NCBI GenBank assembly: GCA_964187785.1
Contig: OZ076409.1
Coordinates: forward strand, 49,540,001 to 49,604,000
Direction of reading: 5' to 3'
DNA: 64,000 bases
From: Amphiscolops sp. MND2022
Lineage: Eukaryota
This document shows, piece by piece, positions 32,030 through 61,038 of this stretch. The translations under genes and the position numbers were made by a program. Position 1 is the stretch's first letter. Each line of letters begins with the position of its first letter. The notes beneath the pieces are model-generated. The model was not told the DNA's origin. It saw only the letters and a list, made by a program, of their open reading frames with translations, and made no database searches.

Positions 32030-32061
<32 letters not shown>
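32030..32061. repeat. (CA)16 microsatellite at a sharp compositional junction
   Basis: Read directly from sequence. Confidence 0.95.
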
Positions 32062-32064
<3 letters not shown>

Positions 32065-32171
32065 GTACGAAGTAGCACTTGGTGGGTCCGTACACGAAAC
32101 GGGCATAAGGTGGGACGTACACACTTTTCCCTTGGTGGGACATACACAAAATCTTTAACTTGGCTATTAAT

Positions 32172-36300: not shown

Positions 36301-39300
36301 TTGTGCCGGTACATGGTTTTTCTCATGAAGAAGCCAAAACAATCAGGACAAGGAGCATAGTTATCAGCTGTTGGATTCTCCGTTTCCGTTGGGTCCCTGA
36401 CTACGATCAGTTTGTCAGTGAATCTGTTCGTATCTATGCATTTTTTGAAAACCGCGATGTTATATTTGTACTGGCCTTCATATGTGATCAAGCGGTATGT
36501 TTGCTCTTTCTCTTTATGAAGTTTCCTCAAATCGCGTTCAGTTGTCGCGATTTCCTTACTTCCTTCTAATTCTTCTATTTCTAGATTTATTCGCCTAAGG
36601 TTACTGACGCGGAGCTCTCTTTGATGGAATGATTGCAAATGGCGATGTAATTTGGCGACCATTGTCGCATCTTTGATATCTTCGAAAGGACAGTAAGGAC
36701 AACATTTCTTCTTTTTGTATTTACCTTCAGAGACAACAATCTGGATCTTCCTGAGATACTTTGAGTTGAATCTCCATTTTCCGGAACAATTAGCGTTGAC
36801 ATATTGTTGCATGTCGTCTTCAATGTTATCATAGCCGTCCATAGTGTTTGCAACATCATCTGGTCTTGTAGACGACGTTGAAGCTAGTGCGGTCTGATAA
36901 CTACTCTCACTGATCTGAGAAATGCCTTCTCCCAATACCACTGTCTGATTTGATGAAACTTTATTGGGTGTACTTGGCGCTCTTTCAGCTGTTGATGCAG
37001 TTTCTGTTTCTTCTTCTGAAGACAGTTCCTCGCTACCTTCATCCTCATCAACAATGTAACTTTCACCTGAAGATTCAGATGTTTCCGACGACGAATCGTC
37101 GCTGGAACTCTCGCTTGATTGTTCAGGTATGTTGCTGTGTTCTTCGGCTGAGTCAGAATCCAAATCTTCCTCAGGCTTCGGCGTTAAGTATTCGCGTCCT
37201 TTGTTGAGAATTCTCAAAGCCCTTGATGTTCCCTCAGAGAGCTCCAACTGCTTAAAAAGGGAGAATCTTATTCTTTCGGGAACAACACAGTTCCGAAAAA
37301 AAAATTTCGCTCTAAAACCACAGTGGCTTCCTTTTGGACTAAAATTGTATTGAGGTTATTTCCAGATGATGAAGCATTATAATCTACATTCGTTCACAAT
37401 GCGTTTGTTTTTACATGCAAAATTCTTTTCACATGATTAAACTTAACAATTAAAAAAAAAACTTTTACCAGCATGATTTTAAAATCCTGTGGCACTTCAA
37501 TGAATGAGGTGCATGAAAGCCATCAAATTGTTTTCACTTTGAGGTGCAAACGCAACCAAAAAAAGATTTTTCAAAAAGTCAGTAATTTCAAATCTTAAAC
37601 GGGTAATTAATGAAATTGTGCTTACCTTCTGAGGTATTATACATTCGTTTTTGGCTCCAAAAGGTGTTTTTGGTTTTCTTCCTTCTAGTTCAGTCATTTT
37701 GGCATACGATGCTTCAATGCTTCTAGTTACATTCTTCGGTTTCCGTGGTTGTTTAGAAGCTTTCGCTTCTGTGTCAGTAGTTTTGTTTTTCTCAACATTG
37801 CTAGATTGGTTTTGCGATGATTTTGTTGAGATCCTCGGTTCCGTGTCCCCGTCTTTGCGTAACGGGTTAGGAGCCTTCTCTTCTGTGTCAGTAGTTTTGT
37901 TTTTCTCATTTTTGCTAGATTTGTTTTGCGATGATTTTGTTGAGATCCTCGGTTCCGTGTCCCCGTCTTTGCGTAACGGGTTAGGAGCCTTCTCTTCTGT
38001 GTCAGTAGTTTTGTTTTTCTCAACTTTGCTAGATTGGTTTTGCGATGATTTTGTTGAGATCCTCGGTTCCGTGTCCCCGTCTTTGCGTAACGGGTTAGGA
38101 GCTTTCTCTTCTGTGTCAGTAGTTTTGTTTTTCTCAACTTTGCTAGATTGGTTTTGCGATGATTTTGTTGAGATCCTCGGTTCCGTGTCCCCGTCTTTGC
38201 GTAACGGGTTAGGAGCCTTCTCTTCTGTGTCAGTAGTTTTGTTTTTCTCAACTTTGCTAGATTGGTTTTGCGATGATTTTGTTGAGATCCTCGGTTCCGT
38301 GTCCCCGTCTTTGCGTAACGGGTTAGGAGCCTTCTCTTCTGTGTCAGTAGTTTTGTTTTTCTCAACTTTGCTAGATTGGTTTTGCGATGATTTTGTTGAG
38401 ATCCTCGGTTCCGTGTCCCCGTCTTTGCGTAACGGGTTAGGAGCTTTCTCTTCTGTGTCAGTAGTTTTGTTTTTCTCAACTTTGCTAGATTGGTTTTGCG
38501 ATGATTTTGTTGAGATCCTCGGTTCCGTGTCCCCGTCTTTGCGTAACGGGTTAGGAGCTTTCTCTTCTGTGTCAGTAGTTTTGTTTTTCTCAACTTTGCT
38601 AGATTGGTTTTGCGATGATTTTGTTGAGATCCTCGGTTCCGTGTCCCCGTCTTTGCGTAACGGGTTAGGAGCTTTCTCTTCTGTGTCAGTAGTTTTGTTT
38701 TTCTCAACTTTGCTAGATTGGTTTTGCGATGATTTTGTTGAGATCCTCGGTTCCGTGTCCCCGTCTTTGCGTAACGGGTTAGGAGCTTTCTCTTCTGTGT
38801 CAGTGGTTTTGTTTTTCTCAACTTTGCTAGACTGGTTTTGCGATGATTTTGTTGAGATCCTCGGTTCCGTGGCCCCCCGTCTCTCTTCTGTGTCAGTAGT
38901 TTTGTTTTTCTCAACTTTGCTAGATTGGTTTTGCGATGATTTTGTTGAGATCCTCGGTTCCGTGTCCCCTTCTTTGCGTAACGGGTTAAGAGCCTTCTCT
39001 TCTGTGTCAGTAGTTTTGTTTTTCTCAACTTTGCTAGATTGGTTTTGCGATGATTTTGTTGAGATCCTCAGTTCCGTGTCCCCTTCTTTGCGTAACGGGT
39101 TAAGAGTCTTCTCTTCTGTGTCAGTAGTTTTGCTTTTCTCAACTTTGCTAGATTGGTTTTGCGATGACTTTGTTGAGATCCTCTGTTCCGTGTCCCCCGC
39201 ATTGTTGTGTAATGTGTTAGGAGGTTTTTCTACTGTGTCCGCTGCGTTTTGTATCTCAATGTTGTTAGATTCGTTGCATGATTGCAATGGCACAGGCTGA

Positions 39301-40466
39301 AGTGGAATTGTGAGGTTCTTCGCACTAAGATTGGGATACAAATTGGAAACCTCTTTCACTGGAACTTCAGATTCTTTTCCTTTTCTTTGCGTTGTTGATG
39401 AAATTCTTTTTTCGGAATCACCGGGTTTTTCTTTTTCAGGTCCAGATTGTTTGAAGAGAGTTTCCAGTTTCTTCTTCCTTGTCACTGTTATGAAGGGCTC
39501 GTCCACATTACGAGATATTTTGTTTTTGGAATCAGCGGCTTCTATATTATCTATATTACTTTTGGTTCCCGGAGCTTGAGGATTTCGTCTCCATTCTGCA
39601 TGAGGAAAACCATAATCATAGCGCAACTCCTCACCTGTGAATATGAACGGATAAACAAGAATGATCAATTGAGAATTGTTTCTTTTAATTGTCTCACAAA
39701 AATGACTTCGGTGGAAACTTCGGCAATAGGCAGTGTTTTTCAATTTTCAGATGTCCCGTTAAGGCCGTGCAAAAATAAGGCCGTTTACGATACCAGAATT
39801 GGTGGGACATAGATTCCGTTTTTTACTCAGCCTTGGTGGTACCTCATACGAAACATAGTGCAAAATGCCTGGAATTTGCTACGAAACCGTTAAGGCTGTG
39901 TAAAATAATAGCCTGGTACTTCCAAGTGTGTATTACTGCAAAACCGTTCAATGTATCGTTACGCTTTGATCAACACTTGCTGGGACACTGATACCTTTTT
40001 CACTGGAACTTGGTGGGACTCACACTCAGTGCCTTAAATGGCCTTCTGTCTTGTAAAAAAAAACAAACTAACCAGACTGAATCGGGCGAGTTGCCAGGAA
40101 GATGCAATGGTTTCTACCTTGGTCATCAGTGACCTTCTTCATCCGACAGTTAGCAGCCACTGCTCTGTCCTTGTCGTTGATGAATCGAGCCATTCCTGAA
40201 TTCTTTTCGTCAGAAGTGTCAATGAATACCGCTTGTTTCCCTTCTTGCAGTTCCATCACATAGTCGAAGTTGGACGTTTTTGTTGTACTTCTCGGTCCCC
40301 AGTAAGTGAGCAAAAATTCTTTGTCGTCAAAACTTCTGTTAGCGAAAAGCCCTCACCCCGTGGCCCCGTTTGCAAACTGTACAGTTTTCACTTGGAAGCC
40401 TTCTGGGTCTGAGTAAAGAAAAGAGCTCCAGGGCTCTGCTTTCCGGGCAGCACTTCTTGTTGACAT
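33310..40466 (-). CDS. SET domain - 38-aa repeats - tyrosine recombinase - Myb-like fusion (~1692 aa); exons 40466-40073, 39634-37626, 37247-35773, 35386-34603, 33726-33310; one in-frame TGA at 40355-40353
   Basis: All four introns GT-AG with matching phases; SET motifs G(*)GLFA, MARFIND, GEELRYDYG; YR motifs FNKKR, GKGGKVVPVL, STKLRK, LGH, HDKYY; C-terminal RRTW...LPG...C...W..IK..IRN. Confidence 0.85.
34603..35386 (-). CDS. Tyrosine recombinase catalytic exon (Crypton-like)
   Basis: R (FNKKR), K (PGKGG), x-x-R (STKLRKYMAT), H (FLGHD), Y (HDKYY) in canonical order. Confidence 0.88.
37760..39200 (-). repeat. 114-bp coding tandem repeat, 13 copies (one shortened)
   Basis: DTEPRISTKSSQNQSSKVEKNKTTDTEEKAPNPLRKDG unit, near-identical copies. 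Confidence 0.95.
40073..40466 (-). CDS. SET-domain exon (SETD8/PR-Set7-like), with nonsense codon in the GxG motif
   Basis: MSTRS...ATG*GLFANRSF...FIDTSDEKNSGMARFIND...NCRMK...LATRPIQSG spliced to EELRYDYG..W. Confidence 0.8.
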
Positions 40467-40833
40467 TCAAGTCCTAGAAAGTTACGTTTAAAGAAGTCCT
40501 GACAGACAAGAAATCGTTTCTAACCCCATCTCACTAGTGAACTCGATGTACATTTGTAAGCTTACAAAACATTGAATTAAAAAACCACTCCGAAGAAATG
40601 CTTTAATTACGAAAGACCATTAGTACAACTGATACTTCCAGATTCTGTAAGGTAGTAACAATTGATTTAAGCAAAAACAAAGTTACACGTAGCCTACAAG
40701 TCGGAAGAATCATTGAGCAAATTCAGAGTTGAGGCTGAATTTTTTGCCTCAATTGTTCTCTTGAATTCTCAAAATCCACAACATTTGTACATTCATCATA
40801 AGAAACTTTCGATTTTTTTCTATACCTTGTATA

Positions 40834-41232
40834 CAGAGGTATGACAGCGATAGCGACAATTCAGCATGAATTAGCGATAGCGATAGTTAGCGACAAATTA
40901 AAGCGTTAGCGAACATGTTTTCAACTAGAAATTCAAAATTAACTAATGCAAAAAATTATTGCGAATAACTTGACACATCATTTTGGCTTTTTCCTTTCGA
41001 ACAGTTATTCGATGAGCCCGGCTTTGTAGGCGAAGTACAATTTGCCCAAAACTTCAAAATTTATTAATTTTAAAGTACATTCTGAAATTTTCATATGATC
41101 TTTCTGAAAATCAGGTTTTTAAAATAGTGATAGCGTTAGCGAACCACCCATTTTGTTGTAGCGATAGCGATGAAATCAAGCCATTAGCGATGTTAGCGAT
41201 TTGCGATAAAATTGTTAGCGATCACACCTCTG
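40834..41232. mobile_element. hAT-like MITE
   Basis: TIR CAGAGGTATGA / TCACACCTCTG; 8-bp TSD CTTGTATA / CTGGTATA; internal TAGCGA repeats. Confidence 0.78.
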
Positions 41233-41422
41233 CTGGTATAGTATTTACTACGTAAGTTAAAAAAGTAAGCAAAAGTGCTCAGTAAGTAAAAAACACATGA
41301 CACTAAATAAAGAAAGCAAACTGTTTGCATGTTCATCAGTCAATAAAGAGCCGAAAATCAAGTTTTGAAACTGAAAATGAAGACTTCCTCAAGCTGCACT
41401 TTCTGGACTCTGTTGTTTCTCC

Positions 41423-44400
41423 TCAACGTTGTAGCCACTCCTCAATTACATCCCAATGCAAGTCGCTGACAGTTGCTGCATAGCGATACAAGAACTCTGC
41501 CCAGGGATTTTCCAGCGGAAATTCTTTACCAGTTGGTCGCTCATCAGCTTTTATGATCTGCAGCATCTCACGCATGGCGGCTTTCGTGATAGGACTCACG
41601 CGGTTTTTATTAGCCCATTCCATGTAGAGCTGCATCACTATCAAACCTGGGAAGTTTGGGAACAAGAAACGTCTTGCCAAACCTGCGTCTAGCTCCTTCT
41701 TGAAGGCTAGGGCACTCTGGTGGAGGTGGGTTTCCATAATGAAGTTACACGCATAAGCAATGCTATCAACAGGGGTGTGAACAAAGTGAATCCACTGGCT
41801 TGGTAAGAAGATAGCGTCTCCTTCTTCTACCACAATATGATAGCATGTGACATCTCGATGGAAACCGAAGAAAGTGGAGCTGAAAACAACATTAATCAAA
41901 GTTGAGAGAACTAACTTCTACTTTAAACATCGGAAATTTTCTAAGAAGTTTCAGCCCCTTGAAGGTATCTTGTAACTCGTGAAAAGCAAACCCTTTTTTG
42001 GAAATATCTTCAGTCATAACCTTCAGCTTTTAACAGTTGTTGACAACAATCACATAACCAATTACAACTTAACAATAAGGAAAAAGATCACAATTATTAA
42101 TCTAAACTGAAGTAAAAACTGAGTTTTCCTTTTTACAAACCTTTTCCATTCACTCTCTCGCCATTCGTCAAAACGCTGTTGGGCTTTCTGGGTTGGCTCC
42201 ACGATGAAAAATTCTTTCCTTCCCTTCAACAAAAAGTAAAAAACAGAAGTTCCGGTGAAATCCTGATGCCAATCCGTCTGTGCTTCCTGTTCAGTCATCA
42301 AGAGGTAATTGCTGATGCCAGCAGTGAAGTCAAACTCTTCTCGGATTGAGGGATCCATTCTTGAGGTGTAAGTATGACCCAGAGAATATTCTTTTATCAA
42401 GTTTGGAATCGAAAATGTGTGTTTCATTGTCCTCTGATGCGGACCAATGTCAAGGTCGATGATGTTCATTGGATGAAGATCTCGCTCGCGGAATGGGTCT
42501 TCATGATGCCCCAAAAAACTTGCCAAGGTCATATTGTTCTCCACTTCCTGGAGTGCTGAAAAACACACATTTACTTTCCTGCTGCAAGGGATTCCCTCAG
42601 TTATTTTACGGAAGGTACCGTGTATGGCACTAGGAACAACAAGACCAGCAAGTTTGCCCCTAGCTTGTCTCAAAACTACAGGACATGGTGTACTTCTCGT
42701 CATTCGGTTCTTGAAATCCTGGCGGTTGTTGACAGTGAAACTTTGGGTGACTGGTACTTTCCCTCGAATTAAATCCAAAAACTTTTTTGACCCAACTTTG
42801 GAACGATTGTGTGAACCCCATTTGAAGGAATCTAAATACGGCAGTTCAATTTCCGGTATCTTTTGTTTTTCTTTCAGAGCAGTCTCTTCTTCAAGAGCAA
42901 TCTCTCCTCCGGGAGCAGTCTCTTCTTCAGGAGCAGTCTCTTCTTCAGGAGCAGTCTCTTCTTCAGGAGCAGTCTCTTCTTCAGTAGCAGTCTCTTCTTC
43001 ACGAGCAGTCTCTTCACGAGCAGTCACTTCACGAGCAGTCTCTCTTTCTCTAGGAGGGGTTATTAATTCGGGGGGAAACACTTCACCAGAAGCAATTACT
43101 TCTTCAAAAGTAACTGTTTCACCGAAAAGTTCTCCTAGGGGAGGAACAGACTGTTGCCTTTCTAACTCTGGGCTAACTCTGGGTGTCCTGTCGAGAGAAG
43201 TTGTTGCAGCATCGGGTTCGGGAGAAGGTACATCATCTCCGGTTACATCAACAGGAACATCTACTGGAGTTGTAATACACGATGTGGTTCTAGCTTGCAG
43301 ACCTCTACATTGTTTATTTGTTTGTCGATGACGGAGCAAATCGAAATGTCTCGTTAGTATCTTCCCACAAGAATTGCATTCGAATGAGCCCTTCTGACGT
43401 TCTGAAACAAGTTTTAGTTGATACGTTATTAAAGACTTTCATCTATATATTTATCTGAATTTGTTTTCCCGTAGAATTTTTTAGGTTTGTGATTTGTTTA
43501 TATCACTTTAAATGCGTTTGATTCTTTCATTGGTATGAGTCTTCAATGTAGTCAATTCATCAATATCTTGATAATTCTGGCATGACTGGGTGTTAGGCCG
43601 TGCTTCAATAGTTACAATACCGTGGGGACCAAAACGCACTTGGTGGGACATGGACCTGCTTTTTTACAACATGTCACTCAATCAACCATCAGTACAAAAA
43701 ACCTATAAACGGTAATCAGTGAATACCAATAAGACTTTTTGTTCTGGTGATCATTATAAATACATATCATTTCCAGGAAACTTCTTCACTTGTTTATGCA
43801 AAGCCGGCTTAGTGGGACATAGACCCCTTTTTTAAAAGGCCTTGGTGGGACATAAAAGTTGAGAGCCGCTATGAAACATTTTTACGCCATTATAAACAGC
43901 CCCGTTATAAACAGCTGACCGTGTTTGTTCACTAAACTGTTTGAGTCGAAAAATATTTATATCTGTTTAAAAATATTTATTTAAAAATACTTATTTTTAC
44001 AACCTTGCATAGACCCCACTTTTCACTAGGCCTTGGAGGGACATAAAATGTATATTCATGTACTTCTTTATTGGATTTATTATATGATTATCAATTGTAA
44101 GTGTTTTCCACGTATTGAATGATTTTGTACTCATGTTTTTTATTTCAAACACTTTATCAGGATCTTTTCTGTTTACCAAAGCCAATCCCCCTCACAGTAA
44201 GAGCGAAAATTGTAATTTTCCCCAGAATCAACGATGAGTTTTATTCAGGTGCAGTTAGAGTTACAATAGTGTAAGAAAAGAACTGAACCCTTATTTGTGA
44301 GAAATAATTTGGACTGCATGTAAACATAGCAAGGATAAATTGAATGTCTAAGATAATGGGCATAATCGCCTTAGTTAGCAGATTCTCGTGATTATAATTT

Positions 44401-47400
44401 TATCGGTTAAAAATCTAAAACCGAAAGCATAATTCCCAATCTTTGCGAAAAATAGCTGTGTCCCACGTATTAAGATAGTAAATAAAATGTAATAGAAGAG
44501 AACCCCTTTCAAAAACTATAAAATACCAATTACCTTAATGTAAAAAAAAATGAATGGCTTCAGTAAAGGAAGAAGTGTCTGCCAAATAAATAAAAGTTCC
44601 AAATTAGGTGCCAAATGTTACAAAATTGTCCAAAGTGATGTCCCCTATGCCAATTCAGTAGTAAATACAATCAATCAAAAATGAAATTAAGAAGTTTCTT
44701 CATTATTTGCAAACTTACATTTCAAGTGCGCAACAAAATTTCAGAATGTTTGTTTATTTGATTTTCAAATAACTTGGATGATAGCAGAAATCAGAGCTAG
44801 TTTTGTTTTGGTCCAATTCTTTTTTTACAAATAAGGGTTCAGTTTATTTCTTACACTATTGTATAAATATTTTTTTATTACAAATATTATTATTAATACT
44901 ACTATTTCAATGATAATTTCACTTGACCTCTTAACTGGGGGTATTAAATTGGTGGGGGAACCAGGGGTTGGTAATTTTGTATTGCAATGCAATACAAGCC
45001 TACCAATTAATAATTTTTGTGCTAACAGAAAAGATCCCTTCATCATTTTCAAATGTCAATTATCACGTTCAAGCGCCACTTCATTCGTAACAGTGTGGTA
45101 TGAGGCGCGGCGCGGAATGTATACAAGTACTGTGTATATATATTCCAATTACTTTACTGTGAATAGGGGACTATGGCTCAGAGCAACAGCTTCCGCTTGT
45201 CAGATCACCAAAGTTAAACACTTGGCAGGCGGAGGCGTTTGATATCTGTAACATATCTGTAGATATCTATGGATAGGTCTCAGATATCAACTATATCAAC
45301 TGCTGGCTCTGAGCAAATGTCCCCTTTTTAAAAAATGTTGAAAATCATTTTTGAAATGAAACACTGTACTATTTCAATAAGCGCCAAGAATGACCAAGAA
45401 TGGTTCATTCTGTAACCGAGAAAGTGTGCAAAAAGTGCTCAACGGCGAGAAAAAAATGAAAACTCGGCAATTTATTGTACAATAAATGTATTAATTAATG
45501 TTGTTTGAAAGTTAGAGTATTTAATGAAAATGCCAGTCAAAGTAATGCATTTATTGAATGTAGGATATCCATTAATAATGTATTCTTTTAATACAAATCC
45601 CTGATCGCAACTCCATTGCTCAAAATAGCGAATTTAAAACTCAAATATCTTTAAAATTGTCAGCTACAAAAGTTTCTTAGACTTTTATCTAATTTACAAA
45701 AATGTTTGTTTGAAAATTCTGCGAGAAAAATTACAAAAGTTAGAAATACGAAAATTTGACAAAATTTCAGGATCTTTACTGGTAATCCCCCCACCACGTT
45801 AAGCGGCCAAGAGAAATTATCATTGAATAAATATTAACAACCAATGGAATTGCAGTATTTTATAGCTCTAACTGCAACTGAAACTCATCACTGATAGTGG
45901 TGGGGAATTAAACTTCCGAGCTTACTTTGGGGGAGGGGGGAAAAACAGAAAAGATACAATTTTCATCAAATTTGCACTTTTTCTTGATTTTCACAAAGTT
46001 AAAAATATTTTTGGAAAATTTTCTATCCATCGTTTGCCCCCAAGTCTCCTGCGGATGCTGATATGGTTTCATTGAAAATTTTTTCTATTTAAAATAAAAA
46101 TCGGTACTTTCCTAATGGACCGGACAATTGAAAAACCATTCCTAATAGACCGGACGCACTATATAGAGACCGTACAATCAGTTCATTGACTTAAAGACTC
46201 CGGTTTCAGGAAAGTACCTAAAAATCATCAATTCTCTAAATACAATTCAAACTTTCATTAAAATAGCAACGCGGTGTGATTTTGTGTAATTTCTTGTGAA
46301 ATAGCAACGCAGTGTGATTTTGAGCAGTTTCTTATGAAATAGCAACGCGGTGTGATTTTGAGTAATTTCATCTGAAATAGCAACGCGGTGTGATTTTCGA
46401 GTAACTTCGGTGAAATAGCAACGCGATGTGATTTTCGAGTAACTTCGGTGAAATAGCAACGCGATGTGATTTTCGACTACCTTCGGTGAAATAGCAACGC
46501 GATGTGATTTTCGAGTAATTTATTGAAATAGCAACGCGATGTGATTTTCGAGTAACTTTGTTGACAAGCAATAAGATTAAAAGCAAATTTTAGTTGTTCA
46601 TTTTCAAGGCGCTATGGCCAAATAGTTAGTGCGCTAGCTTTCGAACCATAAGGTCTTGGGTGCGATTCCCGGACAGGTAAAATATTTCCTATTTCGGAAA
46701 TAAGATCTAAATATTTTTCTTGATTTCAGTAAAATAACTTCGAGAAAAGGCCTTGCTATTTGTGTTACTGTTGTTTGCAATTAATTGTTGTCAAATATTA
46801 TTTAATTATTTCGTTCTTTTTGCCGCTTTACATTTAATAATTTGATTGCTTTGTCATCATTGTGGGTTCGAAACTTGGCCTCGAATAATCAAGTATTTAC
46901 TGCTTCTATTTTTGACTCTCAAAACGATCTATAGAGCAGCTTTTCCTATAGCTAATTTCAAACTTCGGTGAAATAGCAACGCGATGTGATTTTCGAGTAA
47001 CTTCGGTGAAATAGCAACGCGATGTGATTTTCGAGTAACTTCATTGAAATAGCAACGCGATGTGGTTTTCCCCAGTGAATTTCATTGAAATAGTAATGCG
47101 GCGTGATTTTCAGTCAATTAAAGTGAAATAGCAACGCGATGTGATTTCGAGTTTTTTCTAATGGGGGCCTATTCATACAGCAGAAAATAAAGCAGCATAA
47201 AGAAGCATCCTGATGGGAATGAATATAAAAACTATTGTTGCGTTTGCAATACGATTGAAATAATCTAGAAGGGGAGACATTTTTGTGTTGTCTTTTGTTG
47301 TTTAAGGGTTCAAAGACGCCACCAAAGACGCCACTGTACTGTATTATATTGATTTATAACATCGATATTTTAACAAGATAACAAGATATATTGAAGAAAA

Positions 47401-48995
47401 AGGAACTATTTTTAGCTCAACGTAGATCATCTAGACACTATCATGAGTCTTATATGTACTGCATTTTATATAAACCTCAGGAAAGTGCTAGTCGAAATAT
47501 GTCAAATCAAGTTTAATTTGGATATTGTTTGCTAATGGCTCCCGCGAACTTATTTCCCTTTTCCCACTTAAAAGTTTTGGATTTTCAGCGTAGTCGTTTT
47601 TTCACTGTTTTGTCAGAGGAATTATCCCAGCTTACTGATAAAGGGCCACAGTATCCCATTTAGTTTTGGTAATGGTCACGAGTTTGCTTAAATTCATTTT
47701 GGATAGAGCCATTTTACGTGTTGACCGGGATCTTAGAAGTGAAAGTCAAGTTGTTCATGCAGCGTGACAACCTTCATTTTCCAATCAATGATCACCTTTT
47801 CTTGTTCACACAAGCGTGGAACGAACCTGACTTCATAGTTTTTGGTTGAAACATTCGAAAGCTTAGATTCAATAATTGATTAATTTCCGTGAAGGTGGCA
47901 ATTTTCTGCAAACACTCTGGGGACAGATAAATTTTCCTGTGAGTGGGGTGGGGGTGGGTATTAGCAAACAAGATCCGTTAATTTATATCAATAATCAGAA
48001 ATTCTTCAATTGTAACACGACGAATTTCGTCTCGGTGCAAAACTGGGGCTATACTGTAGTGTTCATATCGTTTTCATATAGTACCAGTGCGGCGCCGAGC
48101 AACATCACCGTCCAAGTTAATAAACCACTTGACTTGAAATATTTCACTTGAAAGGAAAGTATTCGATGCCTATTCTGATTGAGTGAGACAGTACCAAGTT
48201 CATTCAGTTTTATTCTGTTATGTTTTATTTTCTTTTTCAAATATTACATTATTTTCTCACTCAAAATGCTCCTGATTTTAATTTACCCAACGTTTACGAA
48301 ACCAGAGTTGGTGGGACATAGACCCCACTTTTTACTAGGCCTTGGTGGGACGGAAATAAGGTAAAGTCACTAGTTAAAAAAATAAACTAGTAAAAATTAC
48401 ATTGTCAAGAATTCACAAGAAAAGAACTCACTGGGTTCTGGTGAATACAAGTCGGATGCCTCAATTCCTCGCTCTCTGATTTCTTGCTGACGTCTCAAAC
48501 AAGTGTTTTTTGAAAGGTGTTGCTTGAGTTTTCCAGTGCTGGCGCAAATCAGACCGCATTCAGGACAAGTACAGCGATGAATACTCAAAGTTTTCCGTTG
48601 TTGATGAGCTAAAACAGAATGAAGTTAATATCTCTAGATCTTCAAATAACATAAGATCAAAGAGCATAAAAATGGAATTAGTTCAAATTTTAAATGGCAA
48701 AGCATGAGTTACATAGAAAACACTACTTTGGGCCTCACCTATGATAGCATGAAAAAGGAAAACAATAGTCAACAAATATTCGTTTTCTTTTTGTTTGTTT
48801 CATTCGGGGTTTAAACTAAAACTTTTCCCCAAAACTTGGCTTCAAAAAAAAATTTCGAAATTTCTCATTTTGAAAATATTTTTCAAATCCAACATAATAT
48901 CTGAACTCACCAAGGCATGTAGATTGATGACGCGTGTAGAACCATTGCTTGTTGGAATCAAACTCTTTGAAGCAGTGGATACAAGTGAAGGTCAT
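41423..48995 (-). CDS. 3x C2HC zinc-finger + JmjC histone demethylase (KDM2/KDM7-like), ~659 aa; exons 48995-48911, 48608-48432, 43401-42141, 41879-41423
   Basis: TDWHQDFTGTSVFYFLLKGRKEF and LPSQWIHFVHTPVDSIAYACNF (H-x-D...H iron ligands intact); fingers CIHC..H..C, CPEC..H..C, CNSC..H..C; GTGAGT/GTGAGT/GTTTGT donors with matching phases. Confidence 0.85.
42880..43045 (-). repeat. 15/18-bp coding repeat (EEETAP) in the JmjC protein linker
   Basis: GCAGTCTCTTCTTCAGGA repeats on the + strand. Confidence 0.85.
44187..45940. mobile_element. Degenerate TIR element in JmjC intron 2; related copy at ~61039-61850
   Basis: CCCCCTCACAGTAAG...GCAGTTAGAG inverted against CTCTAACTGC...CTTACTTTGGGGG; right ~150 bp recur at 61690-61850. 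Confidence 0.6.
44264..44861. mobile_element. Tc1/mariner-like MITE with TA TSD, nested in the preceding element
   Basis: ~50-bp TIR CAATAGTGTAAGAA... / ...TTCTTACACTATTG flanked by TA; host TIR sequence resumes after it. Confidence 0.8.
46260..47152 (+). repeat. ~37-bp minisatellite (GAAATAGCAACGCGATGTGATTTTCGAGTAACTTCGGT) in two blocks, 46260-46560 and 46960-47152
   Basis: About 8 plus 5 degenerate copies separated by ~400 bp of other sequence. Confidence 0.9.
46608..46678 (+). pseudogene. tRNA-derived (SINE-like) sequence
   Basis: A-box-like TGGCCAAATAG and B-box-like GGTGCGATTCCC at tRNA spacing; acceptor stem does not pair. Confidence 0.45.
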
Positions 48996-49124
48996 TCTGG
49001 AATCTGCAATCTAGGTCTTTTATTGAAGGTGGTAGAAAGTTTACCAAATGTCTACTACTGCACGGGACAAATGTTCAACACAAACTGAACCTGAAACTGT
49101 AACTTGACTTCGTCTCAGCAGCTC

Positions 49125-49200
49125 AAGATCGACCAATCACGTTAGCCGGATTTTGGTTGATCAACCAATCACAATAGCCGAAATTTGGCAGATTGGAAAA
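49125..49200 (-). promoter_or_regulatory. CCAAT-box cluster upstream of the ZF-JmjC gene
   Basis: ACCAATCAC twice and GATTGG, 135-200 bp upstream of the ATG. Confidence 0.45.
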
Positions 49201-50609
49201 AGATGATGTATGCTGGTGTTTGATGAGCAGGGCGAACAAATAATAACGTAAAAATTACAAAAGTTGATTTGACGATTTGTAGAAAAAAAGACTTTATATT
49301 GACTTTGTGAAAAACATTTGTCGAATCATGCGGTCGCAGGGGGGATAAGACAAATACCATTGTCGACATCGTTTGCGTTGAAACTTTGATCAAGAAAACA
49401 ATTGATGTCGACATAATTGTATACATTACATTGATTGTCAAAATAATGATTTAAAAATAATTTTTGCCTAAATAATTCCAATAAATACAATCAAAGTATT
49501 TTAATGGAACGCAAAAAAAAAATACAAATAACTTACTTTCTCTCTGATAAAATACAAATAATTTATTTTTAGTGTCCAATAATTTTACCAGAAGAACAGT
49601 GTGCATAGGAAATATTTTTTGGCATCCCTCGGAGTTAAACAGATGGTCCCATTTGACTATGAGCCAAAAATCATTTACTGAGTACAATGATTAAACATAG
49701 GATTGAAATAGTTAGAGAGATTTTCAGGCGAAAAGTTTCAATCATTTGCCAAGAGAGGGTGGGTTTATCTTTTAATTCCTTAGAATGTTTGTCACACTCA
49801 TAATTCCCGTTTTTTACTTGATGATACTTCAAATTGATTTCAAAGATAATTTATTGAGGGAATGTATTTCATTGATATATTCAAACTTCTAATGAATACA
49901 AGACGATTTCAATTCTTGAGCTGTTTTGATGAATGAACTGGGTTTCAATTTTGAAAACACATATTATAAAGATATTGACAGTCGCGAGGATCGGTTAAAG
50001 GAGATAGGGCAAGAATGTATTGTAATTTGCAATTTTTAGTCCCAATAAATGATTATAGCATATTCAAAATCATAGCAACATCGACTGAAAAAAAGATCAA
50101 CTTTAATTATTAAAAACAAATAGCTATATACAAAGTTTTGAAAACGAAGTGTTCTTTTGAATAATGTTTGCAAAAGTGCATGTATAACCAATTGGTGTTT
50201 TTGCAAAGATCGACTAATACCGAGTTTCGAACCCTTGACCTTGCGTTTATAATTCAAGCACTGTACCGATTAGGCTATAGTGTCTGAAATAATGTACAAT
50301 TTAAGTTTCATTTATTTGCTACGCAACAAATAGGGACATCAATAAAATTCAATAAATTCCATTTGAATACAATACAAGATTATTTATTGTAGAGGATAAT
50401 TGTTATTCGTGTTAATCAAGGTTAATTTTACGAATCAAATACCAGAACTCCTGTAAACTCCAGCTGTTTGCGCCATGAGAAAATTTGAGCCATCAATAGC
50501 CATTATGGCCATTATTGATGTAAACATTTGTAAACTTTATGGATTTTCTGTTTCGAACAATTAAAAAATAATAGTTTCCATTAATTTTTGAGCACCTCTG
50601 TTACCACCA

Positions 50610-50923
50610 CTTTGTCATTGACGAACCCCCACTTCGTCATTGCGTTGCTTGTTTTTTTATCTTACTTCCATTATGGAAATAAGATAAAAAAGCAACGCAA
50701 TGAGATTTGCGCGCTGACAAGTCGTCAACGTACAATCACATTGCGTTGCTTTTTTTATTTTATTTCCATTATGGAAGTAAAATAAAAAAGCAACGCAATG
50801 TGGTTCTGAGAAAATCCATGGCCCCCCCATGGCCAAGCTAGAGTGTTTTTTCAATTCTCACCAAGTATGTATAGTACAAAAGGGGTCTAAGTCCCGCTGA
50901 GTGCGGATTCGTCAACGGACAAA
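50610..50923. mobile_element. Small TIR element with internal paired hairpins
   Basis: TTTGTCATTGACGAAC / TTCGTCAACGGACAAA ends; two ~65-bp imperfect palindromes CATTGCGTTGCT...AGCAACGCAATG. Confidence 0.55.
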
Positions 50924-51529
50924 CACTCAGTCACATCGTTTCTTTACATCTTTTATTCAGTCACATCTTTTATTCTCTTGCCATATACTATAGTTTCATT
51001 TGGTGGATTACCAAATAACAAGAGCAAATGAGGTGGATTGATAATGCAGGGTTGTCAAAAAATTCGCACCAATTTAAATCGCAATTCAATTCGGGAATTA
51101 GTTCGCCGGTTTTTTCATTGATATTTTTTGTCGAAGGCCGCGTGTTGAATTGTACAAATTGTCTCACGAGAAAGCTCAGAAACGTGAGCTTATGCCAAAA
51201 AAGGCTGAAAAATTGAAATTTTTGATGCGTTTTGTTGAAATATTTAACATCCCTTGTTTTGAAAGAAATTTTCGAGAAACGGTTTTGGAAAAAAATCGAT
51301 TTAAATCGCTATTTTGATTGAAAAAAAACATTAAAAACGACGTTTTTCTAGAAAGAACGTTTTTTTAACCATGTGATTATTTAATAATACTAGTATTCTC
51401 GAAAGTATGCTCCAAAAAATTCAATAAAAAATTCATTGTAAAAATTTTTGACGCAGTGGGACAATCCTTTAATTTTACCAATTACAGCAGGAGAGTCATC
51501 CACTTCGGTCATCCACCCATGTCAGTCAT

Positions 51530-52170
51530 CCCGGTTTTGGGTGGTGAATGAACCAAGTTGAGAGCTTGACATACAAGCTGTTGGTTTGGATTCAATCAAG
51601 AGGGGGCAATCACTAATTTACTTGGTGAATAGAAACAAACAAGATTGCGGTAAAAGTCCCATCAATGCTTAGTAAATTACAGTTTCAGGTCCCACCAAGT
51701 GCATTTTCGAAAACGTCCTATTTGTTTTTCAAACATTAACAACAGAAGCGTCAAGAAACCCTGCCAGCCCCATGAGGTGTTTGGTGGTGAATGAACCAAG
51801 TTGAGAGCTTGGCATCCAAGCTGGCAATCAAGAGAGAGCAATCACTAATTTACATGGTAAATGGAAGCAAACACGACTGTGTTAAAAAGTCCCATCAATG
51901 CTTAATAAATTAAAGTATCAGGTCCCACCAAGTGCTTTTTCGAAAACGTCCTATTTGTTTTTCAAACATTAACAACAGAAGCGTCAAGAAACCCCGCCAG
52001 TCCCATAAGGTGTTTGGTGGTGAATGAACCAAGTTGAAAGCTTGGCATCTAAGCTGGCAATCAAGAGAGAGAGCAATCACTGATTTACTTGGTGAATGAA
52101 AACAAACAACTGCGTTAAAATGTCCCATCAATGCTTAGTAAAGTAGTGACAGGTCCCACCAAGTGCAACA
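51530..52170. repeat. ~235-bp tandem repeat, ~3 diverged copies, each with CAGGTCCCACCAAGTGC
   Basis: TTTGGTGGTGAATGAACCAAGTTGA...GTCCCATCAATGCTTA...GGTCCCACCAAG repeated. Confidence 0.85.
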
Positions 52171-52462
52171 ACCAATCAAATTCAAACTTTTATCCAATTT
52201 TTTTTCAACGTCATTTCTCATTCCATGAGTTAGTATTGCGTTGTTTTGTCGCCTAAGAAGGAAGAAGATTTCCAAGGCTTACAAAATACAATCAAATTCA
52301 TAAGTTCATAGCAACACAAAAGTATTGATATAGCTAGTTCAAACGACACTAGCGTTGCAGATTATACTGCATAGAGCTGAAAGGATTCCAAGGAAGTCTA
52401 CATTCATCAGCTGGTCAAAGAGCACATAGCAAGCCCAGTTCCGAGCTGACATCAACCCTATC

Positions 52463-52867
52463 ATGTTCAATCCCTCAGCAATGCCAATCAGGTCGTGTAT
52501 TCGTCCGATAGATGAACTGCTCTCAAATTATGCACCACCACACAGAAAAAACGTGCATTTTGCCGACTCAACCACCAATCAAACCTCTCCGACACATCCG
52601 AGAGCTTGGAGGATCAAAAGAAGCAAACCCATTCCTGAGACAACCCCAACAACCTCGCTCACTCTAATCTCTTCTCTACGGAGTGAAAATACAAAAAGGA
52701 ACAAAAAACCAGTAACAGTCAAGTTCTCTTTCATTGAAAGAGCTATACTACCAAATGGACAAGTAATGGAGTCCGTGATATGTTTCAATGCACCCAATGA
52801 ATACTGGAAACCTGGGGCTCTGGACGACGAGCCGTGTTATATATTGAACTGCCGAACAACAAGATAG
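52463..52867 (+). CDS. Hypothetical 134-aa intronless protein
   Basis: ATG in ATCATG context; GC-richer island in AT-rich flanks; upstream CCAAT near 52172. Confidence 0.45.
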   Translation: MFNPSAMPIRSCIRPIDELLSNYAPPHRKNVHFADSTTNQTSPTHPRAWRIKRSKPIPETTPTTSLTLISSLRSENTKRNKKPVTVKFSFIERAILPNGQVMESVICFNAPNEYWKPGALDDEPCYILNCRTTR

Positions 52868-53133
52868 TATTTCATGTTACTATTTGTCGTTTTTTGTTTA
52901 CATTTTTCAAAATCAATTGACCTTTTTCATCTGATTCTCCATTTCATGTTTTAAAAGCAAGCTATCTTGGAAAGGTAGAAAGAAGAGTGGCCACAAACAA
53001 AAATTGGAAAACGGATGTTCTGCGCTCACATTTTAAAATAATTTTTGTTCCCGTTTTCTTGATTTCGGAAAAATGATGTCAATAATCTGTAATAAAGGGG
53101 GAAATCTCCTAGGGCTACGCCCTAAAGTCTATT

Positions 53134-53235
<102 letters not shown>

Positions 53236-55723
53236 GTTCGCGGTGACATTTTGCACCACAATTCCAAAATCGTGTACCACTTTGCATGACCTCGAAAAAT
53301 CGCAAGACCGAAATGCACCTACTACTACCAAGAGCAAAATGGTATCAGATTTACTACTAAAACTATGTCCAAGTAGCATGTGATTTTTTAAGTAGTAATA
53401 CAGATCACAAATCTGAGAACCACTTTGCAATGCAAAAACTGTGAATACTCGGAACTCTCTGCGAAACGTATTGAAATGAACTGAAATGAATAGTATTAGG
53501 TTCTGAGGAGGAATCAAATGATAATCGGAAGGCGTACGTTTTTTTGTAGCCATAGGGAGGATTTTGTAGCCATAGGGAGAGTTGACTCCGAGGGCTTGCA
53601 CCTCTCGCACCCCCAGACAAAATGCATTCTCTCATAGCTTTTAAATAAAGTTACCAATCATTTGAATACAAAGTCTTTAGTCACATACTGGAAAAACTTC
53701 AACTCAATCTTGCATGCGAAAAATGCAGAGAGCTGGGATATTGTAGCCATAGGGAGATGACTTTGAAGGGGCCTTTATTTTGCCTTTATTTTACGAAACG
53801 TTGAGCATTACCCAATCTGATGCTTGAAAAAGATTTGTTTGTCAAGGTTCTGGATTGCCACTTTTGATTTGAAATTTGAACAATTTTTCGAATTTGAATG
53901 ATCACATCAATTTTAACAACAGATATACTTTTCAACAGTATTCAACATTTTATAATCATTTGTTTTTAATCAGCCAACTCTGCTTAAAAGATCTACAAAA
54001 ATGAATAAAAATATTGGCATGCTTTGGTTTTCCCTCCATTTTTTCGTTCACTGAGAATAACAGCATGCTTTCCTAACGTATATTGACAAACAAACAGACA
54101 ATCGAATGTTTATTTGAATTCTGGGATCCAGTTAGTCTGAATTGAACTTGCTGTAGATTTCCTTCAATAACAGCAGCTAACTGGTTGTGAATATAGTATA
54201 TTCTTTACTAGGGATTGTAGCCAACAGTACAAGTAATAATAATTCCATATTTCAAGAAACCATATATCAAATGGCTATTCAACAGATATACTTTAGAGAA
54301 ATAGAGAAACCAACTAATTTGCTATTCAACAGATATACTTTAGAGAAATAGAGAAACCAACTAATTGTGAAAATTTCGTTCAGTCCCGGCATGGTTCATA
54401 AGCGGATTTCCAATTTCTTCGTTCAATTGAATTCATTTCAATTCAATTCCAATTTCTTCGTTTGTATTGTAACGTTCGCATTGTAAATCGCAAAAGGCAA
54501 ACAGCAAACAATTCTTATGATGACCAAATAACATAATAGCTATTTACTTCGTATGATTTGTGAAACTCAGTTCAGCTAAATGAATCAAATTCACAAGACC
54601 GAAACAAAAATAGTCTTACAAAAATTTGAAAATGAAATCCATTGTCATTTGTCAAGGAAATTGTCATTAAATGAAATGTCATTGAATCTGTCATTAAATT
54701 AAATTATAAATTTGCACTTATGTTATTTGGTCTACATTCGATGCAGTTTATTGGCAAAAATTGTTCATTGGCAAATTAACTTCTACCATTATTAAATTGC
54801 CATTAATACTTCTTTAATACTTGCCATTAATACTTGCCTTCTTTGCCATTATACTTCTATTACTCCTTATACGGTAAGAACATTTAAAGGGTTACTCCGG
54901 GGTTAAAAGTTTTAGGTAGTGTTGCTATTTTCTTCGAAAACTTATAGAATTAACTGAACAAACTTATGAATTTTTGAAGAAATAAACTTAAAGAATTCGA
55001 AGAAAGTTATTAGGATTCCTATTTCGAATTTGTCCATTGAATTCAACTATCATCAACGTCATAAGATGGGGGGTTTTTAGGTTGAAAGGAGGTGTTGAGA
55101 GAGAGGTGTTAATTCTAAATGAGTGAAAATGAGTCTAACAGGTGAAAGACATCTAAACCTTTGATAATTATCTGAGGTAATGTGAGGAAAGAAAAATAAG
55201 CAGCCAACCCCATCCCCCCACCTCAACCCATCACCCCAACCCATCAGCCCAACCCATCACCCCAACCCCTCTCCATGATTGTTTATTAAAAGTCTAGTTA
55301 AAAGTTCAGTAGAGGAAGTTTATTTTTAGAGTTTAATTTTTTTAAATTTTAGAGTTTTTATTAGTTTAAAAAGCAGAAATTAATGAATTATTGATTAAGA
55401 TGAAAATCAAAATATCTTAGATAAATCAAAATTTTTTAGAGTTTTAATTATTTTAATTAGTTTAAAAGGTAAAAATTAATGAATTATTGATAAAATCATA
55501 ATGAGGACACTTTTCAAGAAGTAAATTACTTTGTGACAATTTTATGCAGAAAAATCAAACATGACCATTGGTTATTCATCAGAATAAGAATTAAAGTATG
55601 ATATAAATTAAATTAAAGTTCCGAGGAAACTTCGATCAAATAGATTTAAATAAAATTGAAGTACGAATGAAACTTCGATCAAAGTTGATCAATTATATAA
55701 ACAACTGAAATCGAAATGATAAC

Positions 55724-55806
55724 GGGGACGGTGGTTCAGTGGTTAAGTGGGCTGGTTGTTCGGGCTTGTTCATCGCAAACCGGGGTTCGAATCCCAGACT
55801 GGGCGG
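55724..55806 (+). pseudogene. tRNA-derived SINE-like head
   Basis: A box TGGTTCAGTGG and B box GGTTCGAATCC; no convincing cloverleaf. Confidence 0.55.
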
Positions 55807-55938
55807 GTTTGGAATGCGAATTTTTATTGCTGTTTTGATCTTTTAAGTGTTTGACTGGAAACACCCTTTTGACTGGAAACACTGAGTCACTGTCCTTTTT
55901 TTGAGGAAACAAGGGAGGGAGGAGAGTCACAGTACTAA

Positions 55939-56667
55939 AATAATATAAATAATCTAATAATAATCTAAGGACCAGATTTCTTTGCCCCCCTTTTTTTCTT
56001 CAGAAGATATTGCTTTTTTGATGTTCTTTGAAAAAAACACGAAAAGTTCTGAATATCTGAATTATTCGTTACTATTGCGCTTTCTTATTGGCCGAGAATT
56101 CAACCAATTAGGCATCTGAATCAAAAGTACAAAGTTTCACACTTTTGAATGATGATTTAAGTTGATTCAAATATTATTTATTTTCACAGTATTATATAAT
56201 TATTATATAACAAATATCATTTTAAAATATTTTTAAAAAGTGTGGGGGGAAAGGAAAAAGTTCCGTTACTATAATCAATTGCATAAACAACATTTTGAAA
56301 AGTGTGGGGGGGAGGACAAAGTTCCGTTACTATAATTAATTGCAAAAACAACAATTTACCCCCACACTTTTTAAAATTATTTTAAAATGATATTTGTTAT
56401 ATAATAATTATATAATACTGTGAAATTAAATAATATTTGAATCAACTTAAATCATCATTCAAAAGTGTGAAACTTTGTACTTTTGATTCAGATGCCTAAT
56501 TGGTTGAATTCTCGGCCAATAAGAAAGCGCAATAGTAACGAATAATTCAGATATTCAGAACTTTTCGTGTTTTTTCAAAGAACATCAAAAAAGCAATATC
56601 TTATGAAGAAAAAAAGGGGGGCAAAGAAATCTGGTCCTTAGATTATTATTAGATTATTTATATTATT
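55939..56667. repeat. Long inverted repeat / foldback element (~310-bp arms, ~110-bp spacer)
   Basis: 55939-56248 is a near-perfect reverse complement of 56359-56667; spacer holds a direct duplication. Confidence 0.92.
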
Positions 56668-56888
56668 AGATTATTAGATTTAATGCATCCGGCTGCAGCT
56701 CAAGCGGTCACTGGTTAGAACCCGGGTGCAACCTAACTTTTTTCATTTGATATTCTCCCAAGAGATTTTTGTATTATTCGAATTTGAAGCTTGTTTTGAA
56801 ACTAAAACGGGTACACAACTGCTTTTAAAAAACGGATGCAGAGTGGTCAACTAATTTTTTCACGAGGTTCCAGGTGTCAAGATGCAAG

Positions 56889-57098
56889 ATGAGACCCAAA
56901 AACTTGAGGCCAACAAAACTTTATAGTAGATGTATTATTTGTTTAGAGGACTTTAGATCAGTAGAATTACAGAGCTTTCATAGAAAACATTCCTTACATT
57001 TAGCATGTAGAGACTGTTTAGATTCCCTTTTTGTATATTCAGATGTATTTAAATGTCCATTATGTAGAATACCTGTAGATAACATTGTATATTCTTAG
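56889..57098 (+). CDS. Small RING-finger protein (or terminal RING exon)
   Basis: CIIC-LEDF...H.H-LA-CRDC...CPLCR; TTCCAG acceptor ending 56873. Confidence 0.65.
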   Translation: MRPKNLRPTKLYSRCIICLEDFRSVELQSFHRKHSLHLACRDCLDSLFVYSDVFKCPLCRIPVDNIVYS

Positions 57099-57140
57099 TT
57101 TTGTAAATTTTGTAGTTTATTTTATTAGTTAATTTACGGA

Positions 57141-60966: not shown

Positions 60967-61038
60967 TTCGTGACACCCTACCATATGGTCCAAGGTAATT
61001 TAAAATTTGAAACCAAAATATGTTCTTTTCTGTTACTT

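Follow-up and report, generated by a model that had tools for sequence, protein, structure and literature searches.

A transposon-borne zinc-finger JmjC gene and a candidate target motif amplified in the non-coding DNA of its element

The gene at 41423..48995 of the 64,000-nt stretch analysed here (the window) encodes a predicted zinc-finger JmjC (ZF-JmjC) protein, and is cargo of a young 50.8-kb transposon of the tyrosine-recombinase, CryptonV-like type. We propose, with a probability of roughly 0.55, that this KDM7-like enzyme binds a motif amplified in the element's own DNA, strips repressive mono- and dimethyl histone marks, and keeps the element active. What is new here is the amplification of this motif (motif 2, AACG(C/G)nn(T/G)GTG), as tandem arrays and lone sites, in the non-coding DNA of every family with this finger set, including one (family I) with an unrelated recombinase and SET domain.

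The element, a member of family A, has sharp ends, CA-rich targets and well over 100 copies in this animal-type genome, where cargo-bearing tyrosine-recombinase elements measure 40–68 kb.

32030..32062, plus strand: (CA)n microsatellite target at the left junction
32063..64000, unstranded: in-window part of the family A element, with the left end GTGTACGAA at 32063
32163..32815, plus strand: subterminal 67-bp array with one GGTGGGAC (motif 1) per unit
48291..48362, minus strand: internal copy of the element right terminus within intron 2 of the ZF-JmjC gene, 94% over 72 nt
G000:C1:49,622,902, 18.9 kb past the window edge: element right end TTCGTACAC

Five other copies share the identical left end with differing flanks, and a recombinase match lies 6–13 kb downstream on the same strand for 116 of the 150 scored JmjC matches (56 of the 58 top ones), which bears out the cargo status of the gene. 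The left flanks end in CAT in 23 of 30 cases and carry (CA)4 or more in 15 of 30, the right flanks being weaker (4 of 30); both sets of 30 include internal copies of the ends. The ends have a 9-bp inverted sequence, and target duplication was not seen. Motif 1 is a likely candidate for the recombinase site. It was rejected as a target of the fingers, since it differs in family G and is nearly absent from family I while the fingers are conserved; each family I locus holds 0–1 copies of either terminal motif.

The recombinase is encoded downstream of the ZF-JmjC gene, in one frame with a SET domain.

40073..40466, minus strand: SET-recombinase exon 1, SET domain, with a nonsense mutation at codon 38 in this copy
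37626..39634, minus strand: exon 2, end of the SET domain and a 114-bp repeat region
35773..37250, minus strand: exon 3, acidic stretch and two Cys/His finger-like motifs
34603..35386, minus strand: exon 4, tyrosine recombinase catalytic domain
33310..33726, minus strand: exon 5, C-terminal helical domain, no Pfam match, which we take to be Myb/SANT-like

The SET domain is fused to the recombinase in families A and G. Read-through or recoding of the stop in the SET exon was rejected on the basis of a sense codon at that position in five other copies, and a JmjC–SET fusion on the basis of the conserved JmjC stop and SET start in A and G. The catalytic residues R, K, R, H and Y are invariant with fish proteins, the closest named relatives of the recombinase, and the uncharacterised fish SET-recombinase proteins are pointed to as relatives. 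In Foldseek the top rows for the recombinase model are XerA, XerH, Cre and integrases, at E 0.004 or weaker. A Pfam search gave no match to the recombinase, and none to DUF3435, the recombinase of the Starship family, at E up to 1.

CryptonV DNA transposons have been described as encoding a tyrosine recombinase and inserting into microsatellites (PMC8869645, PMC3212892), and the present element resembles these published descriptions in both respects and in the absence of a visible target duplication. It differs in its 50-kb size, in a second gene for a chromatin enzyme, in the SET-recombinase fusion and in its 9-bp inverted ends; animal CryptonA and CryptonI are described in the 2011 paper among these sources as having no terminal repeats. 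Starships, as described, are giant cargo-bearing tyrosine-recombinase elements of fungi (PMC10104507, PMC12134995); in contrast to these, the recombinase here is SET-fused with fish relatives, and the cargo looks self-serving.

The ZF-JmjC gene described in an earlier note on this DNA is confirmed: four predicted exons give an open frame of 659 aa, which begins with the first-exon peptide of that note.

48911..48995 (85 nt), minus strand: exon 1, ATG and finger 1
48432..48608 (177 nt), minus strand: exon 2, finger 2
42141..43401 (1261 nt), minus strand: exon 3, finger 3, acidic 18-bp-repeat linker and JmjC N-half with T463, H466, D468 and K483
41423..41879 (457 nt), minus strand: exon 4, H539, N553, FxFPNF motif, helical tail and stop

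The predicted boundaries have GT donors, AG acceptors before exons 2–4 and phases 1, 1 and 2, and intron 2 spans 5,030 bp; judging from the sequence, the four exons would be spliced together and expressed. An acceptor-like AG immediately before the exon 1 ATG in families A and B suggests a non-coding exon further upstream. The 85-nt exon 1 also occurs in families B and G. Exons 1 and 2 in G retain the sizes (85 and 177 nt) and phases of A at 54% identity and with saturated synonymous sites, and the exon structure is therefore not due to chance; more generally, the sister families, at about 55% identity, have kept the sizes and phases of the exons and the finger residues. Among 379 candidate genome matches to exon 2, 150 were scored, all at least 91% identical.

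The three N-terminal zinc fingers are of the C2H2 type ending in Cys, as had been claimed, with ligands C5/C8/H23/C27, C43/C46/H59/C65 and C96/C99/H112/C119 in exons 1, 2 and 3, respectively; finger 3 is encoded together with the JmjC N-half on exon 3. They match C2H2 families in Pfam weakly (E 0.009–0.022); in the PDB, finger 3 matches C2H2 fingers of the classical kind. Intervals of 15 and 30 residues, neither of them a canonical linker, separate the fingers, and finger 1 contains a two-residue insertion. In A, B, G, G2 and three of four family I copies, helix positions -1 and 6 of finger 3 are both Arg, and position 3 is mostly Asp. Under the finger recognition code, a fitting triplet (GCG or GTG) exists for finger 3 alone; matching of all three fingers to triplets by this code failed for fingers 1 and 2. 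Comparison of A with B gives dN/dS values of 0.19–0.25 for the fingers, 0.23–0.27 for exon 4, 0.56–0.61 for the JmjC N-half and about 1.0 for the linker, and the finger exons are thus under purifying selection, with order and linkage kept between the sister families. The value of about 0.6 for the JmjC N-half corresponds to moderate constraint. An intact frame was present in 13 of 18 A/B stretches tested, and some copies are broken.

In the JmjC domain, H466-D468-H539, T463, K483, N400, Y476 and N553 align with KDM7/KDM2, in keeping with the complete iron triad and T/K 2-oxoglutarate ligands noted earlier, and the metal and 2-oxoglutarate ligands are intact in families A, B, G and I. Pfam matched only JmjC and finger families to the ZF-JmjC protein, the JmjC scores being below the cut-off; PHD, CXXC, F-box and LRR modules were not found in this search, as the earlier note had also stated. 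The KDM2-type modules that would follow the JmjC domain are absent in A, B, G and I, where the stop follows the helical tail, and the JHD family PF17811 matches only the host gene. The best solved-structure matches of the element JmjC are KDM7A and PHF8, with E 4e-23 for a confident family I domain model of pLDDT 84; that model represents a sister protein of 56% core identity, and KDM2/7 rows were part of its alignment. The FxFP[NH]F motif is kept, and the family I model has helices and aligns with KDM7 over about 390 columns. The element JmjC is KDM7-like rather than KDM2-like, which narrows the earlier label "KDM2/KDM7-like". Similarities to KDM7A/PHF8 include the metal and 2-oxoglutarate ligands, substrate-pocket residues, VGSxxF upstream, FxFP[NH]F downstream and the overall fold; unlike these enzymes, ZF-JmjC has no PHD finger, a core identity of 30–35%, a diverged helical tail and a separate long-branch position. 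A viral origin of the domain found no support: matches to viral structures reach E 3e-10 at best, far short of those to KDM7, and none of the 11 stretches on viral contigs that fit the pattern was confirmed. Environmental JmjC relatives occur on short ENA, Logan and NCBI contigs.

Motif 2 occurs throughout the element and is not concentrated at the ends.

46261..46555, plus strand: 38-bp tandem array in intron 2 of the ZF-JmjC gene, one motif-2 site per unit
46961..47152, plus strand: second 38-bp motif-2 array in intron 2
50642..50805, unstranded: motif-2-like sites, of both orientations, clustered upstream of the ZF-JmjC gene
33987..37405, unstranded: three lone sites in SET-recombinase introns, at about 33987, 34341 and 37395
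about 58095 and 61211: further lone sites

The 50.8-kb element holds 37 sites, as against one in 53 kb of flanks and one in 182 kb of background, and the strict motif has 6,480 genome matches versus 5 for a reversed control. Loci of families B, G, G2 and I have 4.7–20 sites per 10 kb, those of D, E, F and H 0–1 per 30 kb; in families with a JmjC gene but without these fingers the motif is nearly absent. Flank contexts number 11 in A and 11 in G2, with none in common. Variation amounts to 22/994 in the core and 40/284 in the two-base spacer, the core positions having been picked after inspection of the data. No site falls in 7,075 bp of element exons, an absence that is not significant because there are only about 11 independent contexts.

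Such a distribution is characteristic of the targets of anti-silencing VANC proteins in plants. VANC proteins of Arabidopsis VANDAL transposons are described as accessory proteins whose short motif is enriched in introns and elsewhere in the non-coding DNA of the cognate element; it often lies in tandem repeats, which differ between related VANDAL families (PMC5735166). ZF-JmjC is likewise an element-encoded accessory protein with a candidate motif in non-coding tandem repeats of its cognate elements, a finding that supports the VANC analogy drawn earlier. In contrast to VANC, it has its own demethylase domain and C2H2-type fingers, belongs to a tyrosine-recombinase mobile element of an animal-type genome and has a motif common to several families, while binding and effect are predicted from sequence. 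Arabidopsis REF6/JMJ12, the product of a host gene, with four fingers and acting on H3K27me3/2, is described as a JmjC histone demethylase whose own zinc fingers direct it to a DNA motif (PMC7105484, PMC6497721). The combination in one protein, with predicted motif targeting, recurs in ZF-JmjC, which differs in being carried in many copies by a transposon, in having three fingers, N-terminal and ending in Cys, and in its KDM7-type domain. Epigenetic enzymes as DNA-transposon cargo include SET in oomycete HarbingerS/MuDR and TET/JBP in fungal DNA transposons; these are writers or DNA oxidases, and neither a histone demethylase nor an own targeting motif is among the cases as that source presents them (PMC12730594).

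In our proposal, the fingers, finger 3 above all, would read motif 2 in the element's non-coding DNA, and the JmjC domain would remove H3K9me2/H3K27me2 (or H4K20me1) at the motif-bearing DNA. KDM7A and PHF8 act on H3K9me2/H3K27me2, and PHF8-type enzymes remove H4K20me1; the substrates named are those expected by analogy. Anti-silencing would operate in trans on all copies, including the present one with its dead recombinase gene. Besides the fingers, further parts encoded by the element could bind DNA. More tentatively, and at somewhat under even odds, this may be an animal transposon anti-silencing system, with a self-targeting histone demethylase and introns seeded with its binding motif, and one of several SET-plus-JmjC cassettes that move from one giant element to another, unrelated one and may each have a finger–motif pair of their own. 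A literature search, with Repbase entries outside its scope, found no published animal precedent. Plant VANC is the motif-based precedent found for the active countering of chromatin silencing by transposons; for an animal transposon, an enzyme and a candidate target sequence are both named here, which makes the question directly testable. As a natural fusion of fingers and demethylase, such a protein would make a compact, sequence-specific eraser of epigenomic marks.

Other explanations differ in the part given to the host gene, the SET domain and the motif. A canonical, single-copy, intron-rich host KDM2/7 gene of the PHD type, matching a PHD-bearing protein, lies separately at G000:C4:53.015-53.043 Mb, and the ZF-JmjC gene is thus not the only KDM2/7 gene in the genome; the 150 candidates scored, of 1,027, included no further host gene of the KDM2 type. 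In the phylogeny, which comprises quick trees only, a long branch (SH-aLRT 100) sets the element JmjCs, as a clade of their own, apart from every cellular KDM2/KDM7/JHD1 row, and they do not group inside the KDM7 clade. With only 35% core identity to the host-type protein in addition, the capture inferred in the earlier note is not supported in the form of a recent capture from the host gene. Cargo status, the separate host gene, selection on the linked finger exons and the VANC-like motif support other parts of its interpretation, in which DNA binding, enzyme activity and anti-silencing are predicted. That ZF-JmjC is the host orthologue, or a passively amplified non-functional copy, is very improbable and, on sequence grounds, largely refuted: its resemblance to KDM7A/PHF8 structures and the broken copies are outweighed by the separate host gene with canonical motifs, dN/dS well below 1, exon structure kept at saturated dS and the separate clade.

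In all the families with a JmjC gene that were examined (A/B, G, I, D/F, E and H), a SET gene adjoins it, and the motif-targeted JmjC could instead form a writer/eraser pair with the element's own SET, setting H4K20 methylation around the element for recombination or replication and not for lifting silencing. The SUV4-20-type SET of family I (E 2e-12), the known action of PHF8-type enzymes on H4K20me1 and the SET-recombinase fusion in A and G fit this idea, which we nevertheless consider unlikely: the partner SETs of A/G and I are unrelated, and the pair is therefore not a fixed one, the family A SET has no PDB match to indicate its specificity, and motif 2 is spread through the element rather than placed at the ends. 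It is similarly doubtful that motif 2 is a hitchhiking minisatellite or the site of another protein (a recombinase finger or C-terminal domain, or a host factor), with fingers that bind protein or RNA and a JmjC domain acting broadly or on a non-histone substrate. Judged by the similarity of their flanks, the family I sites, 42 in all, group with the 38-bp array unit of family A, and motif 2 may therefore have travelled with the gene as a minisatellite; the non-canonical finger spacing, the finger-like motifs and helical tail of the SET-recombinase protein and the long-branched JmjC clade point the same way. Against this, motif 2 persists in family I, which has the same finger gene and a recombinase-like frame and SET that do not match those of A; A and G2 each hold it in 11 unrelated contexts, the host background has almost none of it, and finger 3 resembles classical DNA-binding fingers.

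Among young copies, CpG sites differ 2–3 times more often than other G/C positions (137/10,160 vs 339/58,253). This excess is inflated by the definition of the CpG class, and CpG o/e is 0.86–0.94, so that no inference on DNA methylation is drawn from it.

The ZF-JmjC gene (minus strand, four exons between 41423 and 48995) yields a 659-aa ORF with GT-AG signals and predicted splice phases of 1, 1 and 2, encoding three zinc fingers, then a linker of acidic repeats and, last, the JmjC domain. The finger ligands are as follows.

ZF-JmjC finger 1: C5/C8/H23/C27
ZF-JmjC finger 2: C43/C46/H59/C65
ZF-JmjC finger 3: C96/C99/H112/C119

The fingers look like the C2H2-fold type with Cys as the last ligand; their Pfam matches are weak, and finger 3 has matches to classical fingers in the PDB. 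For each half of the JmjC domain the top match is KDM7A/PHF8 (E 1e-11 to 1e-10), followed by PHF2 or KDM2A. The ORF and the aligned residues H466, D468, H539, T463 and K483 confirm the JmjC enzyme with three fingers, iron triad and T/K ligands described in the earlier note; N400, Y476 and N553 are also present. The protein is KDM7-like, yet lacks the PHD and the tree placement of KDM7.

A Pfam JHD domain search of the genome matched one locus, on C4 (5 candidates), where an intron-rich gene with canonical motifs matches P0168, a protein with a PHD-like N-terminus. This separate host gene is single-copy (among the best 150 of 1,027 candidates). ZF-JmjC is thus not the only KDM2/7 gene in the genome; being the only orthologue was what the earlier note had said would refute its reading. 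Two quick trees, of 53 and 29 rows (P0053 was dropped because it lacks the anchor motif), group the element JmjCs with unnamed environmental proteins in a clade that excludes every cellular row (SH-aLRT 100); neither tree fixes where this clade attaches, and long-branch effects are possible. The proposed capture was therefore an old one. The VGSxxF and FxFP[NH]F motifs indicate that the source was probably a KDM7-like gene. Element-type motifs recur in P0046, P0064, P0071, P0074 and P0078, unnamed JmjC proteins encoded by short contigs in public data; those placed in the tree fall inside the element clade, which may be widespread.

ZF-JmjC is transposon cargo. In the 1.07-Gb genome, where the window spans G000:C1:49,540,001–49,604,000, at least 150 matches to the JmjC exon were scored among 1,290 candidates and at least 141 to the downstream recombinase-like exon among 660, many at 100% identity. 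Among the matches listed, 116 of the 150 best for JmjC have a same-strand recombinase match 6–13 kb downstream; weaker copies are among the remaining 34. The left end of the window's element is common to five further copies with differing flanks, which, with the downstream recombinase, upholds the cargo status.

Family A element (giant tyrosine-recombinase transposon): 32063 to G000:C1:49,622,902, 50.8 kb, 9-bp inverted ends

No target duplication is visible at the family A ends. Exact matches to the two end patterns number 182 and 175 in the genome, internal copies counted, versus 0 for controls, and six pairs of listed ends, matched by position and by eye, give lengths of ~40–68 kb. CAT terminates 23 of 30 left flanks, and 15 of the 30 are CA microsatellites. 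Tandem pairs of elements occur at L053 (C4:19.25 Mb), L047 (C8:8.56 Mb), L121 and L151, where a shared CA site joins an end of family A to an end of a sister family that appears to be G. The numerous internal terminus copies (35512–35572, 39782–39842, 48291–48362, 58160–58380 and 62431–62970) suggest growth via nested insertion or end capture. The giant element also contains small inverted-repeat elements at 40838–41235, rich in TAGCGAT repeats, and at 55939–56667, with arms of >300 nt.

A second gene of the giant element, a SET-recombinase with five exons and 1,693 codons, is interrupted by a nonsense codon in the window copy; among five other copies, three are open and two frameshifted. The catalytic exon has no Pfam match, and nearly everything that its model (pLDDT 66) retrieves is a tyrosine recombinase or a relative, with E no better than 0.004. 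The same layout recurs in fish proteins, two with SET; uncharacterised proteins P0011–P0018, five of them named from fish, have this recombinase and are likely unannotated elements of the same kind. The recombinase and the CA-microsatellite targets fit CryptonV, some families of which insert in microsatellites (PMC8869645). Cryptons have been described as lacking terminal inverted repeats (PMC3212892) and as single-ORF elements (PMC9406493); PMC5753468 and PMC4455052 name CryptonV in tables only.

The ZF-JmjC ORF is intact in 13 of 18 family A/B stretches, two being frameshifted and three not amenable to modelling with the anchors used. Between A and B, the fingers have a dN/dS of 0.19–0.25 and exon 4 one of 0.23–0.27; JmjC-N reaches 0.56–0.61 and the acidic linker about 1.0. 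That ZF-JmjC is a host gene or a dead copy is highly improbable. Family G, to which ~110 of the best 150 scored matches belong by an eye count, has the same 85- and 177-nt exons and the same phases throughout; its fingers are 55% identical, with dS saturated. Family I, an element of about 17 kb with 10 of the best 150, keeps exons 1–3, with a short intron 2 and no intron 3. Its JmjC model (pLDDT 84), for which KDM2/7 rows were part of the alignment, has matches to KDM7A/PHF8 (E 4e-23) and KDM2A (4e-19). The family lies at G000:C5:37.59–37.60 Mb and other loci (L197–L216), and one end of the element abuts a (TA)n microsatellite.

The family A element contains two motifs. Motif 1, GGTGGGAC, has 45 sites in the element and none in 53 kb of flanks. 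Because it lies at the termini and their internal copies, and is exchanged for GGTCGAAC in family G, it is likely the recombinase site. Motif 2, (A/G)(A/C)AACG(C/G)nn(T/G)GTG, has 37 sites in the element, compared with a single one in the flanks and another in 182 kb of background; the element's exons have none, and neither does a 70-kb stretch at the host gene. Its density is 4.7–20 sites per 10 kb at the eight loci counted in families B, G, G2 and I, which carry the ZF-JmjC fingers, and 0–1 per 30 kb in the loci of D, E, F and H, whose JmjC genes have no match to the finger exons. The strict motif has 6,480 genome matches versus 5 for a control. Of the first 100, 97 lie in clusters, either at family A copies among those listed or in DNA that matches A or G; the other three are singletons, one without an element match. 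Multiplying copy number by sites per copy yields a rough estimate of 7,000, enough for elements to explain most of the total. Arrays have a period of 38 bp in A and periods near 57 and 97 bp in G, lone sites occur in both orientations, and blastn aligns no part of family G intron 2 with the family A element. The flanks of 117 sites form 22 clusters, 11 with A, 11 with G2 and none mixed. Variation is 22/994 at core positions and 40/284 in the spacer, with the core defined after the fact and two profiles from one locus.

We propose, at a probability of about 55%, that the predicted fingers bind motif 2 in element DNA and that the JmjC domain would then strip repressive me1/me2 marks across the element, acting in trans on every copy. 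In families A, B, G and G2, and in three of four I copies, finger 3 retains Arg(-1) together with Arg(6), in most cases alongside Asp(3). By the finger recognition code it would presumably read GCG or GTG, both within motif 2; fingers 1 and 2 show no fit to the code. Motif 2 could instead be unrelated to the fingers and the enzyme untargeted or non-histone, which we consider unlikely. Family I is a natural control here, with the same fingers and motif despite an unrelated recombinase-like ORF and an unrelated, SUV4-20-like SET, but all 42 of its sites share flanks with the 38-bp unit of A, so co-inheritance of motif and gene is possible. A SET-coupled role of ZF-JmjC at H4K20 is similarly doubtful. 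The earlier note's reading of a candidate VANC-like anti-silencing factor is partly supported and gains a candidate target in motif 2; a recent capture from the host gene is not supported.

VANC proteins lift silencing and recognise short motifs located in the non-coding tandem repeats of the elements that encode them (PMC5735166), REF6 is a host JmjC protein directed by fingers (PMC7105484), and SET and TET/JBP cargo is known from oomycete and fungal transposons (PMC12730594). ZF-JmjC resembles VANC and REF6 in anatomy and is a member of neither. No transposon-encoded JmjC demethylase was found in the literature searched, judged mostly by title and opening of abstract; Repbase Reports, most subscription journals and supplements may already describe such cargo.

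The variant of motif 2 seen in family I forms an 8-kb satellite-like array at G000:C5:5,445,218–5,453,331. Family E is a 19-kb element with 22-bp inverted ends, a JmjC gene with intact triad, a recombinase-like ORF and a SET gene, in three copies 99% identical (G000:C6:13.43–13.45 Mb, L105–L107; C2:9.60 Mb; C5:22.26 Mb); its own dispersed motif, GGTTTAGAA, occurs 21 times, possibly a second finger–motif pair. In D/F and H, JmjC and SET genes adjoin an ORF with a DIWGDG motif, which we take to be reminiscent of Transib/RAG1 transposases.

Families D/F and H: G000:C1:40.20–40.23 Mb, C5:65.48–65.51 Mb and C7:63.76–63.79 Mb (L102–L104, L108–L110, L114–L116)

Outside the giant element, positions 1–9670 hold a Ty3/gypsy-type LTR retrotransposon with 99% identical LTRs (1–732 and 8940–9670) and stops interrupting its gag-pol region. 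An 880-aa low-complexity open frame at 17356–19998 (plus strand), without a convincing Pfam match, is probably a host gene exon.
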